From the NCBI RefSeq assembly GCF_057098645.1, contig NZ_CM169472.1: DNA of 64,000 bases; one strand, given 5' to 3'. Shown one piece after another: positions 58,501 to 61,500 of the stretch (its first letter is position 1; every line of letters starts with the position of its first letter). Made by a program: the position numbers.

Positions 58501-61500
58501 GTATCTAAAAAATAGTATTTTTGAAATGGGTCTAAGAACACAACAATGTACAAATGAGAAGTTATCTTTTAATATGTTCAAAGACCCATTAGGATTGATA
58601 TCAGTTATGTTAGCTAGATTGATAAAGTGATTACATATTTTCTGTTATATGCTGAAATGAATAATGCTATTCCAGAGTGCAGCAGAGAAAGTCTCCTGAT
58701 GATTGAGCTCTGGAAATTGTACAATAGAAAAATTACTGTATTTTTCTGTCAAAATATTTCTCAAAACAGATTCCGCTTTGATGGCTTCAGGATATAAAGA
58801 TGCGGAGTAATCAAGGCTAAGATTTCCGTTAAGCAAGCATATACTTTTAGTGTGCTTTGATTCTGATATATCATCTTTAATTATCTTGATGATTCTTTCA
58901 TTCTGCCATAGAAGTGATGGTGCAGATATATAATAATAGTTAAAGCATGAATTATTTTTTAAGCAATCAAGCACAAAAATAGCACCTAGCGAGTGCCCCC
59001 ATATACCGATTCTGGAACTGTTCGGAGCAATAGTACTAACCCATGGCATGATCTGAGTTAGTAATAATTCTCGGAAAGACTGGCTTCCTCCACCAGTAAA
59101 GTAGATCCATGCTGGTTTAGAGTTATCAACAATAGCATTTTCACCATCAGGAGTATAATCGTAAGCACGGCGATGAATGCTAAGGTTATTCCAAGATTCA
59201 TAACCAAGTGTAACTAACACTGGTGGATTGGGTAGTGCATCAATAACAGGCAGAATATCAGAAATGTAATTGTTGGCACTATTCCCATCAAGTATATAAA
59301 GAGTTGCATTATTTTTTTTAATGTTTTTTGGAGTAAAAATACATATTTTATATTTGGTGTCATGGTTAATTGAGTTAAATATGCGTGTTTGACAATGAAT
59401 GTCCATATGTTTAGTCATGCGTTCTCCCCATGAGCATTAAAGGATGCTTAAGATATGCTATGTCACTGATAAAAAATTTGTTGTGTGTGTTTAGTTATTT
59501 TATCTACCTCCATTATGATTTAAGACTGATATATGTTATCAGCAAAGGTACATCGTTATTATTTTACCTGTCAATACATTTGATATTGATTATCGTTTAC
59601 ATCGCTTGCTTAGGAAATTGAAGGCAGGTAACTATCATGTCAATGAACTAACCCACAGTCTAACGTACTTCTTTCCCCAATCACCAACAACCAAATTCCT
59701 GTTATCACCACTGGGATTTTGGCGCAACTTCATGGTGCAGAGGTAAATAGCATCAAGCAAAATCTCTTTTTCCGTTGTTGTCCTTATGGGACGTCTGTCT
59801 TTCTGACCGATTTCATATTGGCGAGGTAATGGGAAGTTAAGTAGAATAGCTGCGGGTGCTTGAGGCTATCTGCCTCGGGCATGAACACCAACGGCAGATA
59901 GAGAAAAGCCCCAGTTAACATTACGCGTCCTGCAAGACGCTTAACATTAATCTGAGGCTCAATCTATGAACGGCAAATCTAGGTTAGCCTCTTACGTGCC
60001 GAAAGGCAAGGAGAAGCAGGCTATGAAGCAGCAAAAGGCGATGTTAATCGCCCTGATCGTCATCTGTTTAACCGTCATAGTGACGGCACTGGTAACGAGG
60101 AAAGACCTCTGCGAGGTACGAATCCGAACCGGCCAGACGGAGGTCGCTGTCTTCACAGCTTACGAACCTGAGGAGTAAGAGACCAGGCGGGGGAGAAATC
60201 CCTCGCCACCTCTGATGAATCAGGCATCCTCAACGCACCCGCACTTAACCCGCTTCGGCGGGTTTTGTTTTTTCCTGGCATTCTGGTTTACAATTCGCAC
60301 GCCAGCCTGAACAACTGGCACCTGCTGCGCCAGCAGAGACAACCGATGGCGCACGATACCAAATTATACAATTCTGATGATTCTGCCGTCTTTGCCAGCA
60401 GGCGCGGACGGTGTTTTCACGCATTCAAATCTGACTGGTACCAGCATCCCCCATGCACTGAAGAACAGGCCGAATGGCTCATTCAGTGTTACCGCAGGCG
60501 CGGATGCGAGGTTAAAAAAGCCCTTAGCCTCGACTACCGTCACTGGATAATCTCCGTCAGGCTCCCTTACTCCGAACGGCCACCGCGTCCGTCCCGCACA
60601 TTCCAGCAACGGATCTGGAGGTAATGTGCGGGTATTACTTCGACCTGTTCTGGTACCGGAACTCGGTCTGGTTATCGTTAAGCCAGGCCGTGAATCCATG
60701 CGGGTATTTCATGGCGGCAGGGTGCTGGTGGAGTCTGAACCGAAAAGCATGCGTAATCTGCCGTCCGGGGTCGTTCCTGCCGTTCGCCAGCCGCTGGCGG
60801 AAGATAAATCATTACTGCCATTTTTCAGCAATGAGCGTGTGATTCGTGCTGCTGGTGGCGCTGGTGCACTGTCTGACTGGTTATTACGTCACGTTAAATC
60901 CTGCCAGTGGCCTCATGGTGATTACCACCACAGCGAAACCGTCATACATCGTTACGGTACCGGCGCGATGGTGTTGTGCTGGCACTGCGACAACCAGCTG
61001 CGCGACCAGACATCCGAATCACTTGAGCAACTTGCTCAACAAAACCTGTCAGCATGGATGATTGACGTCATCCGCCACGCAATGAATGGCACACAGGAAC
61101 GGGAATTATCGCTGGCTGAATTATCCTGGTGGGCAGTCTGCAATCAGGTGGTGGACGCATTACCTGAGGCAGTATCGCGTCGTTCTCTGGGATTACCGGC
61201 GGAAAAAATCCGCTCCGTATACCGTGAAAGCGACATCATACCGGGAGAACAGACCGCCACCAGCATACTGAAGCAGCGCACAAAAAATATTGCGCTACCG
61301 CCTCACACCCACCAGCAACAGAACCCACCACAGGAAAAGACGGTGGTCAGCATTGCCGTTGATCCGGAGTCTCCGGAATCCTTCATGAAACGACCTAAAC
61401 GTCGCCGCTGGGTAAATGAGAAATACACACGCTGGGTAAAGACACAGCCGTGTGCGTGTTGTGGTAAGCCAGCGGACGATCCTCATCATCTGATTGGTCA

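Follow-up and report, generated by a model that had tools for sequence, protein, structure and literature searches.

The region from 59832 to 60273 of the window (the whole 64,000-nucleotide stretch of contig NZ_CM169472.1, assembly GCF_057098645.1, that was analysed) is very probably a complete, apparently functional hok/mok/sok type I cassette, with HokD as its toxin and a leader of the hokW/sokW type, in the replication/nin region of a lambdoid EHEC prophage. A sequence-only reading had proposed a hok/mok-type locus here, and this identification is borne out by the protein family, the nested mok frame, the homology of the leader, the 5'-3' fold-back and the prophage context. It had been placed at 59640-60260, an interval whose core does hold the cassette; the left ~190 bases do not belong to it, since 59640-59830 holds the remnant of an ant/ORF6N antirepressor gene, and the right end at 60260 cuts the terminator. 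The corrected span of the functional cassette is ~59818/59832-60273. No IS element, frameshift or stop interrupts it, and both ORFs are open. Its features are as follows.

59818-59847, plus strand: predicted hok/mok promoter (-35 TTGGCG at 59818-59823, 18-nt spacer, -10 TAGAAT at 59842-59847)
59854-60273, plus strand: putative full-length mok-hok mRNA, ~415-420 nt (+1 placed by homology, 3' end from the terminator)
59854-59865, plus strand: tac (translational activator), predicted to pair with fbi at full length and with ucb after 3' truncation
59856-59882, plus strand: metastable 5' hairpin predicted in the nascent transcript (59856-59866 with 59872-59882)
59904-59974, minus strand (5' end 59974): predicted Sok antisense RNA, 71 nt, homolog of the 933W sokW misc_RNA, supported by folding
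59906-59912, plus strand: ucb, or anti-SD box, AAGCCCC, from the folds; its alignment columns are invariant in the relatives
59954-59991, plus strand: predicted Sok-target hairpin of the processed mRNA (truncated-mRNA MFE and Rfam consensus structure)
59966-60178, plus strand: mok frame, 70 codons, in frame with hok (ORF list)
59981-60009, minus strand: candidate Sok promoter by analogy with R1 (-35 TTGCCT from 60009 to 60004, 17-nt spacer, -10 TAACCT from 59986 to 59981)
60008-60013, plus strand: hok Shine-Dalgarno AAGGAG, read from the sequence, inside the stretch retained in K-12 hokD
60023-60178, plus strand: hok toxin gene (HokD), 51 aa, from Pfam HOK_GEF and identity to K-12 HokD
60161-60164, plus strand: UACG motif at the Tyr47 codon (TAC 60161-60163), candidate TadA A-to-I editing site, Tyr to Cys
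60167-60225, plus strand: 3' stem-loop that would end the processed mRNA, present in both MFE folds (full-length and truncated)
60228-60240, plus strand: fbi (fold-back inhibition), CCTCAACGCACCC, from its pairing with 59854-59865 in the full-length MFE
60247-60273, plus strand: predicted intrinsic terminator of the hok mRNA, AACCCGC-TTCG-GCGGGTT (60247-60264) with a T run to 60273, from the terminator scan

The toxin listed from the ATG at 60023 reads MKQQKAMLIALIVICLTVIVTALVTRKDLCEVRIRTGQTEVAVFTAYEPEE and makes up the last 51 codons of the 70-aa ORF at 59966-60178; the nesting of a 51-aa Hok-family toxin in a longer mok-like frame had thus been read correctly. Alignment to family models agrees at both the protein and the RNA level. 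Residues 25-66 of the 70-aa frame match Pfam HOK_GEF (PF01848) over the full profile (1-42) at 81.6 bits against a cut-off of 22 (E=3e-23), which places the protein in the family, and Rfam RF01794 ('sok') aligns to 59854-60028 over model positions 1-157 of 157 at 107.1 bits against a gathering threshold of 59 (E=2.4e-23). The Rfam match lies on the hok-sense strand, and therefore supports the leader rather than the antisense transcript itself.

The toxin is identical to K-12 HokD at 51/51 residues and to HokW at 47/51, the four differences from HokW (T45V, A46D, P49S and E51K) all being C-terminal. HokD/RelF, a peptide identical to the window toxin, has been reported to be toxic on overexpression, and its expression is reportedly lethal; toxicity may be expected of the window gene in its present context as well. 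PGAP labels the protein 'type I toxin-antitoxin system toxin HokD' (WP_000813254.1). The NCBIfam models for a Hok subfamily (NF007279, 48.5 bits against a cut-off of 73) and for the HokA equivalog (NF007290, 40.2 bits against 89) scored below their cut-offs, and PGAP's HokD name must come from another rule. Both models are tuned to other subgroups and membership at the Pfam level is unaffected. A sequence search of the PDB found no relative with a solved structure. As read from the translation, the toxin has a hydrophobic helix at residues 6-24 (AMLIALIVICLTVIVTALV) and a cysteine at position 30, and Tyr47, encoded by the UAC of UACG, stands where the second Cys would be; the hokD mRNA is edited at the corresponding Tyr codon, and the overexpressed CDSs of studied hok homologs are toxic (bioRxiv 10.1101/2025.08.07.668861).

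The mok ATG at 59966 lies 57 nt 5' of the hok ATG, is preceded by a Shine-Dalgarno GAGG 8 nt upstream and is invariant in 90 relatives. Most relatives have an offset of 57 between the two starts and some have one of 58 or 56, and translation always reaches the hok start.

Upstream of the leader, the hok promoter matches the consensus at 9/12 positions in a consensus scan. Relatives including 933W share its -10 TAGAAT and the AGTTAAG that comes before it, but since homology begins near 59832 the -35 region is not conserved. Transcription would start at 59854, where position 1 of the Rfam model aligns, 7 nt after the -10, and would probably end at a terminator that is common to K-12 hokD and is replaced in 933W.

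We examined the predicted folds of this mRNA as full-length, truncated and nascent species, and three alternative conformations emerge as their respective MFE structures. In the first 30-50 nt the metastable hairpin is the MFE (-18.8 to -19.0 kcal/mol). At full length, 59854-59865 (tac) pairs with 60228-60240 (fbi) in a helix of 12 bp with one bulge, and ucb (59907-59910) pairs with the mok SD region (59956-59959). Once the RNA is truncated to 60228 or shorter, ucb (59906-59912) pairs instead with tac (59854-59861) and the SD pairs with dcb. In the resulting Sok-target hairpin the mok SD GAGG (59954-59957) and GAGGCU pair with the dcb AGCCUC (59986-59991), and the mok AUG lies in the 5' arm. 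These predicted folds match the scheme for R1 in PMC9841398. The inverted repeats that had been noticed upstream and downstream of the toxin are real (59851-59872 with 60221-60243, and 59855-59874 with 59893-59912). A further complementarity, 17/20 between 59740-59759 and 59857-59876, was considered as an additional fold-back element and is probably fortuitous, because its upstream arm lies inside the antirepressor-gene coding remnant.

This anatomy is conserved. In an alignment of 90 distinct relatives the proportion of paired cells is 95.1%, compared with 33-42% in slid controls, for a structure that was derived from the window sequence and is thereby favoured over the controls; 14 pairs show double-sided changes. 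The core helix of the 3' stem-loop (GGCGGGGGA/UCCCUCGCC) carries compensatory changes at 2 pairs. tac is nearly invariant and fbi is also retained in K-12 hokD. For the tac/fbi helix itself, paired in 99.4% of cells with almost no variation, covariation was sought in the 90 relatives and none was found, which neither adds to nor takes from its support as the helix is almost invariant; its support is therefore conservation together with thermodynamics. The locus also recurs elsewhere: a stretch of 661 bases is matched at 100% identity by many complete E. coli genomes, which is far beyond chance, and among them are many O26, O145 and O103 EHEC genomes in which the PGAP name is likewise hokD.

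To place the antisense partner we used homology with the annotated 933W locus together with folding, rather than a generic scan. The predicted Sok has a 14-nt single-stranded 5' tail, a long hairpin and a UUUU(CUCU) tail, with a fold of -30.0 kcal/mol, and all Sok alleles of the relatives share this architecture of tail, hairpin and U-run. The minus-strand signals on which the proposed antisense regulation depends are in part as expected: the promoter hexamers and their spacer are identical to those of the 933W/Sp5 sokW locus and the hairpin and U-tail are present, but the promoter matches the consensus at just 7/12 positions, and the generic promoter/terminator scan, which found the hok signals, reported neither a Sok promoter nor a Sok terminator. 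In Sp5, sokW RNA was detected and was antitoxic, and a -10 mutation at the sokW locus abolished antitoxin activity (PMC8621323). By this homology the window Sok would be expected to act as an antitoxin too.

Among known systems, the closest likeness is to hokW/mokW/sokW of the Stx2 phages 933W and Sp5 (VT2-Sakai), at 93.6-93.8% DNA identity over ~420 nt; the 933W and Sp5 loci are identical to each other over 445 nt. The order of -10, tac, ucb, Sok hairpin, mok, hok and fbi is the same, as are the 71-nt Sok at the homologous position, the 70-aa in-frame mok and the lambdoid prophage host. What differs is the -35 region, the terminator, the flanking genes and the place in the phage genome. Of the 7 substitutions that separate Sok from sokW, 6 are within nucleotides 1-10 of the 5' recognition tail; these tail substitutions fall at mok codons 2-3 and at the base just before the mok ATG. 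The hokW-sokW pair is experimentally a type I TA system, with HokW toxicity, sokW antitoxin activity, promoter dependence and both RNAs detected in Sp5 (PMC8621323).

The paradigm of the family, hok/sok (parB) of plasmid R1, belongs to the same Pfam and Rfam families and shares tac, fbi, ucb, dcb and the metastable hairpin, together with mok-coupled translation, an antisense Sok and the same predicted switch between full-length and truncated forms. It is a plasmid system whereas that of the window is in a prophage, and HokW has ~44% protein identity to R1 Hok (PMC8621323). In R1 the mok ATG is at 116-118 and the hok ATG at 174-176 (PMC9841398), which implies an offset of 58 nt; R1 mok would therefore be in a different frame from hok, unlike the in-frame window mok at 57 nt. 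Compared with the Rfam consensus, the window Sok hairpin also contains 16 inserted nucleotides, giving 71 nt rather than ~64 nt. The hokC/mokC (gef) locus and other chromosomal E. coli loci are more distant, at ~74-76% DNA identity over leader and CDS. The annotation of mokC, too, is that of an in-frame extension at the N-terminus. These loci differ in their core-chromosome location, form a separate sequence subgroup, and in K-12 are inactivated by IS elements or rearrangements.

K-12 hokD (relF) of the Qin prophage encodes the identical 51-aa protein under the same PGAP name, and its 3' UTR (stem-loop, fbi and terminator) is ~98% identical to that of the window. It is located behind relBE and keeps ~14 nt upstream of the hok ATG; the hok promoter, tac, ucb, the mok start and all of the Sok gene are therefore absent from it. 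K-12 hokD is a fragment of a system that the window carries in its complete form.

From the homology with hok/sok of plasmid R1 and with hokW-sokW of Sp5 we propose the following mechanism. A weak promoter would give a stable mRNA of ~415 nt, in which the 5' tac would be held in the metastable hairpin during synthesis. In the finished mRNA tac would pair with fbi at the 3' end and ucb would then pair with the mok Shine-Dalgarno, so that neither ribosomes nor Sok could act. Slow 3' trimming of ~40 nt would remove fbi, upon which tac would switch to ucb and the mok SD/AUG would enter the dcb-closed hairpin. This processed mRNA would either be bound by the unstable 71-nt Sok, starting at its 14-nt 5' tail, and destroyed, or be translated once Sok is gone. 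Ribosomes translating from the mok AUG would be brought to the start of hok, and the Hok peptide (51 aa) would insert into the inner membrane and kill or lyse the cell.

The cassette lies between the replication genes and DUF968/RusA/Q of the lambdoid prophage, with a terminator-like hairpin (59779-59793) following the decayed ant fragment on its left. It had been described as a second addiction module of the prophage. "Second" is fair, because the prophage also carries a type II TA set of the paaR2-paaA2-parE2 kind at 52048-53047, 7 kb from the cassette and on the other strand; "addiction" is a putative functional label. As an observation on the wider region, the window is ~99.96% identical to O145:H28 RM13514 and O26:H11 11368 from ~55.7 kb on and is mosaic upstream.

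As for biological role, the most likely one, by analogy with the studied systems, would be killing or lysis of the cell when Sok synthesis stops, either at loss of the prophage or at its induction. A functional cassette whose role is not addiction is possible, though somewhat unlikely: Sok would be lost at induction and Hok would damage the inner membrane before holin/endolysin, with earlier lysis and more phage as the outcome. In favour of such assistance to lysis, the window cassette is 93.8% identical to hokW-sokW with the same Sok promoter hexamers and sits in the lambdoid prophage context just described, and hokW-sokW, the nearest studied relative, promotes phage release after induction (PMC8621323). 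When the Sp5 copy was deleted, growth arrest came ~40 min later and half as much phage was released; sokW RNA disappeared upon mitomycin C treatment, and the production of HokW depended on RecA (PMC8621323). This effect in Sp5 was, however, twofold only, and the 933W/Sp5 cassette lies near the right genome end among other neighbours, a position that differs from that in the window. Assistance to lysis and addiction are also not mutually exclusive. Phage exclusion as the main role, in which a lytic phage would stop host transcription and, as Sok decayed, Hok would kill the cell before the infecting phage had matured, seems improbable. R1 hok/sok did lower T4 plating by 42% and gave smaller plaques (cited in PMC8621323), and hok is ~fourfold enriched in prophages, where defence genes are common (bioRxiv 10.1101/2025.08.07.668861); but the R1 effect was modest and needed a high-copy plasmid, hok is not enriched near defence systems (bioRxiv 10.1101/2025.08.07.668861), and no feature of the window bears on exclusion.

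We also considered whether the locus might be inert, a decaying relic like the K-12 chromosomal hok loci that expresses neither toxin nor antitoxin. The K-12 hokD copy is truncated, decayed copies occur among the relatives of the cassette (L120 has an internal deletion, L103 is truncated at its 3' end, and 2 of the 90 carry premature stops), and both promoters are weak by consensus. Chromosomal loci tested so far, hokA, hokB and hokC, likewise gave no post-segregational killing, as summarised in a preprint (bioRxiv 10.1101/2025.08.07.668861). In the window, by contrast, all elements are intact, fold-back and switch have been kept, many EHEC lineages carry an identical locus and the Sok promoter hexamers are those of the functional sokW. 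With a toxin, moreover, that is HokD/RelF, described as lethal, a relic is quite improbable. Least probable is a toxin gene co-transcribed with its neighbours and free of antisense control, as in the K-12 relB-relE-hokD arrangement: the protein is indeed identical to that of K-12, where it is leaderless downstream of relBE, but the window sequence itself refutes such an arrangement, with full leader, mok start, Sok region and promoter all present. Furthermore, the upstream neighbour is the decayed ant fragment followed by its terminator-like hairpin, and the type II TA genes are distant and oppositely oriented.

Within the transcribed cassette, strong variation is confined to the Sok-target hairpin loop, which comprises mok codons 2-5 and corresponds to the 5' recognition tail of Sok. 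There are at least 16 discrete loop alleles, and all 16 seen in 122 relatives fold to the same target hairpin. EHEC genomes hold 4-13 hok/sok copies in our counts, and up to 18 have been reported. It is conceivable, though rather doubtful, that the loop alleles are orthogonal specificity classes, which would stop the Sok of one copy from protecting against the loss of another. Among IMG/VR prophages, the two members of a within-genome pair had the same allele in 1 of 12 cases, the chance expectation being 0.105, which gives no signal of same-allele avoidance. The window allele was counted at 1715 places in 1631 complete E. coli genomes (median 1 and maximum 4 per genome); it is found twice in at most ~5% of carriers, perhaps slightly fewer than under random assortment, counts that are not decisive on avoidance because the genomes are clonally related. 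Co-residence of the same allele within one genome clearly occurs.

To conclude, the locus is already known, being an ordinary complete hok/sok copy annotated in hundreds of genomes. Its value as a discovery is small, as hokD is annotated in RefSeq, its near-twin hokW/mokW/sokW has been studied, and the family is the best understood among type I TA systems. Its practical use is in annotation: RefSeq marks the 51-aa CDS only, so that Sok, the frame of mok and the elements of the mRNA go unannotated, and the Rfam 'sok' match on the sense strand could mislead automated pipelines about the antitoxin strand. The locus also shows the form that the truncated K-12 hokD had before loss of its leader. 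Finally, the division of the Sok tail into alleles offers a modest lead on the number of near-identical hok/sok copies that can coexist in EHEC genomes; if the alleles are indeed orthogonal, each prophage copy in such a genome would stay individually 'addictive'.

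The sequence-only reading described a Hok-family toxin of 51 residues nested in a longer mok-like leader frame, and both parts of this description were borne out. A 70-codon frame was listed on the plus strand (59966-60178), the last 51 codons of which, from the ATG at 60023 onward, read MKQQKAMLIALIVICLTVIVTALVTRKDLCEVRIRTGQTEVAVFTAYEPEE. The toxin frame matched Pfam HOK_GEF at 81.6 bits (E=3e-23; cut-off 22 bits), and the 51-aa peptide is identical to E. coli K-12 HokD (RelF) and shares 47/51 residues with HokW of the Stx2 phage 933W. Alignment to hok/sok models, proposed as a check, also succeeded at the RNA level: among three gathering-level matches in the Rfam scan of the whole window, RF01794 ('sok') was found at 59854-60028 with 107.1 bits (E=2.4e-23) and the model covered in full. 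The HOK_GEF match, the HokD identity and the RF01794 match together put the existence of the described object far beyond chance. The UAC of Tyr47 lies within a UACG motif (60161-60164, plus strand, flanks CAG...CUG) which, as read from the sequence, resembles the sites at which TadA is reported to edit A to I in hokB, and is stated to do so in hokC/D/E (bioRxiv 10.1101/2025.08.07.668861). Such editing, if it occurs, would yield Cys47, a possible partner for Cys30.

Homology to the 933W hokW locus spans 59832-60250 and that to K-12 hokD 60009-60272. A promoter scan predicted the hok promoter TTGGCG-18-TAGAAT at 59818-59847, which places +1 near 59854, also the first position of the Rfam model, and a terminator scan found the hok terminator (60247-60264) with a T run after it. 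The interval originally proposed, 59640-60260, does hold the cassette, but its left 190 bases are a remnant of a phage antirepressor (ant) gene, so the coordinates were trimmed. Here, 59670-59756 resembles the 5' ends of ant genes (76-82% identity), the translated frame gave a weak, sub-threshold ORF6N match, and PGAP annotates a truncated pseudogene. The decayed 5' ant/ORF6N fragment as a whole (59670-59763, plus strand; 76-82% DNA identity to Stx-phage ant genes) adjoins the hok cassette on the left, with a terminator-like hairpin (59779-59793) between it and the hok promoter. Within the fragment, 59740-59759 is complementary to 59857-59876 in the tac region at 17/20 positions (85%), for which a rough estimate of chance is ~1% in a region of such size; this could reflect pairing with read-through transcripts, or coincidence.

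The annotation of 933W comprises mokW, hokW and a 71-nt 'SokW antisense RNA', and alignment to the latter placed Sok at 59974-59904 on the minus strand. In its predicted fold, 14 nt at the 5' end stay unpaired ahead of a long imperfect hairpin (-30 kcal/mol), and the RNA ends in UUUU(CUCU). The suggested search of the minus strand for an antisense promoter gave a divided answer, resting on the following element.

60009-60004 and 59986-59981, minus strand: -35 (TTGCCT) and -10 (TAACCT) hexamers of the putative Sok promoter, with a 17-nt spacer and the start 7 nt beyond

The hexamers match the consensus weakly and were missed by the generic promoter scan, but they are identical between the window and the 933W locus. 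The loci of 933W and of Sp5, another Stx2 phage, are identical over 445 nt; in Sp5, antitoxin activity was lost when the sokW -10 was mutated, and Northern blots showed sokW RNA (PMC8621323). As for annotation, the 157 positions of RF01794 match the hok-sense strand, beginning at the start of the mRNA and reaching beyond the hok AUG. The actual Sok corresponds to the middle part of this match, as its 71-nt reverse complement. Pipelines trusting the strand of RF01794 would put the antitoxin on the wrong strand.

Inverted repeats typical of hok mRNA fold-back had also been noted, and these agree with a predicted pairing of tac (59854-59865) with fbi (60228-60240) in the full-length mRNA (59854-60270), in which the mok Shine-Dalgarno region (59956-59959) is base-paired to ucb (59907-59910). 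The predicted fold flips once the 3' end is cut to 60228 or shorter: tac (59854-59861) then pairs with ucb (59906-59912), and GAGGCU (59954-59959) with the AGCCUC of dcb (59986-59991), the latter hairpin holding the mok AUG and being the predicted Sok target. For nascent RNA of 30-50 nt, a metastable hairpin (59856-59866 with 59872-59882, ~-19 kcal/mol) was predicted. These folds, all thermodynamic predictions, reproduce the switch mechanism of plasmid R1 (summarised in PMC9841398).

To place this structure among relatives, a pattern scan of IMG/VR yielded at least 120 stretches, and 90 distinct 431-nt sequences were aligned. The full-length structure of the window was paired in 95.1% of the alignment cells versus 33-42% in slid controls, with changes on both sides in 14 pairs versus 6-11, a comparison biased in its favour by the derivation of the structure from the window sequence. 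The tac/fbi helix was paired in 99.4% of cells and hardly varies; its support is therefore conservation, not covariation. In the inner tac hairpin, A-U is replaced by G-C in 14 sequences, and compensatory changes are likewise seen in the hairpin of the Sok region and in the 3' stem-loop. The mok ATG shows no variation among the 90 relatives. Decayed relatives were seen in other prophages, one with an internal deletion removing most of hok (L120) and one with its 3' end replaced and no fbi (L103); two further aligned loci have premature stops giving a Hok of 32 or 37 aa.

The mok ATG of the window lies 57 nt 5' of the hok ATG, so that mok is in frame with hok and its complete translation would give Hok with an N-terminal extension; mokC, as annotated in K-12-type genomes, is a frame of this kind. 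Most relatives have this offset (in frame, 70 aa), some have 58 nt (+1 frame, 68 codons), and in one allele group an offset of 56 nt leaves a mok of 19 codons, with a stop codon that overlaps the hok ATG. The mok frame is not fixed in the family, L007, L011 and L016 being among the loci concerned. For R1 we infer an offset of 58 nt from coordinates in PMC9841398. The conserved trait is not the Mok peptide but translation as far as the hok start, which fits the accepted translational-coupling role. In the Qin prophage of K-12, hokD follows relBE directly; it shares sequence with the window only from ~14 nt 5' of the ATG onward and is thus without promoter, tac, ucb, mok start and Sok, whereas it keeps fbi and the terminator. 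By sequence comparison, the system is complete in the window, and K-12 hokD is a fragment of it.

The host element is a lambdoid prophage (integrase 46553-47572), in which the cassette lies between replication genes (DnaC-like ATPase, DUF1627, DUF977) and DUF968/RusA/Q genes. The 661 bases reported as the finding recur at 100% identity in the complete genomes of EHEC strains, among them O26:H11, O145:H28 and O103, where the RefSeq/PGAP name for the 51-aa gene is 'type I toxin-antitoxin system toxin HokD'. O145:H28 RM13514 and O26:H11 11368 show ~99.96% identity to the window from ~55.7 kb onward and are mosaic upstream; none of the genomes retrieved matches the right part of the window over its full length. 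Immediately left of the cassette is a low-GC island (58300-59650, 28-39% GC versus ~55% in the flanks). It carries a 257-aa alpha/beta hydrolase (ORF 58645-59418, minus strand) with a sub-threshold match to Pfam 'Putative esterase' and none in NCBIfam; the gene is intact in the window and in RM13514, and split by IS1203 in 11368. The same prophage also carries a three-gene type II toxin-antitoxin set (52048-53047, minus strand), which resembles paaR2-paaA2-parE2 of O157:H7.

52048-52338, minus strand: ParE-family toxin (PF05016, E=4e-18)
52338-52529, minus strand: PaaA2 'stability determinant' antitoxin (PF21217, E=3e-22)
52547-53047, minus strand: HTH regulator

The sequence-only reading had counted the hok locus as a second addiction module, and this set is presumably the first. 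Rfam further identified the DicF antisense RNA beside dicB in the prophage (50550-50601, minus strand, 76.9 bits) and a PyrD leader (19413-19486, plus strand, 97.9 bits) in the window's chromosomal portion, which puts the prophage near pyrD.

The element is very common. By blastn, the 438-nt transcript region was at least 80% matched in 5367 of the 5426 complete E. coli genomes, at a median of 4 and a maximum of 13 places per genome, a count that takes in 74-76% identity matches, i.e. hokC-type loci. The cassette also occurs in 110 phage records and in P1-like plasmids, and a survey found hok enriched in prophages, with up to 18 copies in one O157:H7 chromosome (bioRxiv 10.1101/2025.08.07.668861). 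The record PP818812.1 (Actinobacillus pleuropneumoniae phage vB_Apl-pPE4, matching related locus L028) has the cassette at 96.8% identity together with an ant-like match; unexpected for a Pasteurellaceae host, it may be a prophage of E. coli type, or the host may be misassigned.

Homology lends good support to a toxin-antitoxin mechanism; what the locus does biologically is a matter of proposals, of which we rank addiction and/or lysis assistance first. In the classical reading of such loci, addiction means killing upon prophage loss. Against this, tested chromosomal hok loci gave no post-segregational killing (bioRxiv 10.1101/2025.08.07.668861). Lysis assistance is favoured by an effect demonstrated for hokW-sokW, where Sok is lost upon RecA-dependent induction and Hok is then made ~1 h before endolysin, with earlier growth arrest and a doubling of released phages (PMC8621323). 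Phage exclusion is less likely, although it has been reported for R1 hok/sok (cited in PMC8621323). The original observation is confirmed and its interpretation supported, with trimmed coordinates and with caution over the word 'addiction'.

Across relatives, the entropy of the transcript has a sharp peak at 59958-59977 (0.63-0.87 bits), compared with ~0.0-0.3 bits across the bulk of the leader and of the coding region and up to ~0.5 in a few bins. This segment comprises the target-hairpin loop, mok codons 2-5 and the Sok 5' tail, and falls into 16 discrete alleles among the 122 listed loci. Each allele still forms the hairpin and leaves a free Sok tail of ~14 nt, differing in sequence. Over the first 10 nt of Sok, the window allele and sokW have 6 differences; the former is present in 1631/5426 complete E. 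coli genomes. Neither IMG/VR prophages nor complete E. coli genomes gave a clear sign that one genome avoids carrying the same allele twice, the two tests being uninformative or only weakly suggestive. The loop variation could be neutral drift, since a cis-encoded antisense retains its complementarity through any mutation and there is no constraint on the Mok peptide; equally, the alleles could be specificity classes preventing cross-protection between co-resident copies. As a feature the locus is already known, and its remaining value lies in the annotation issues and in this question of the Sok-tail alleles.
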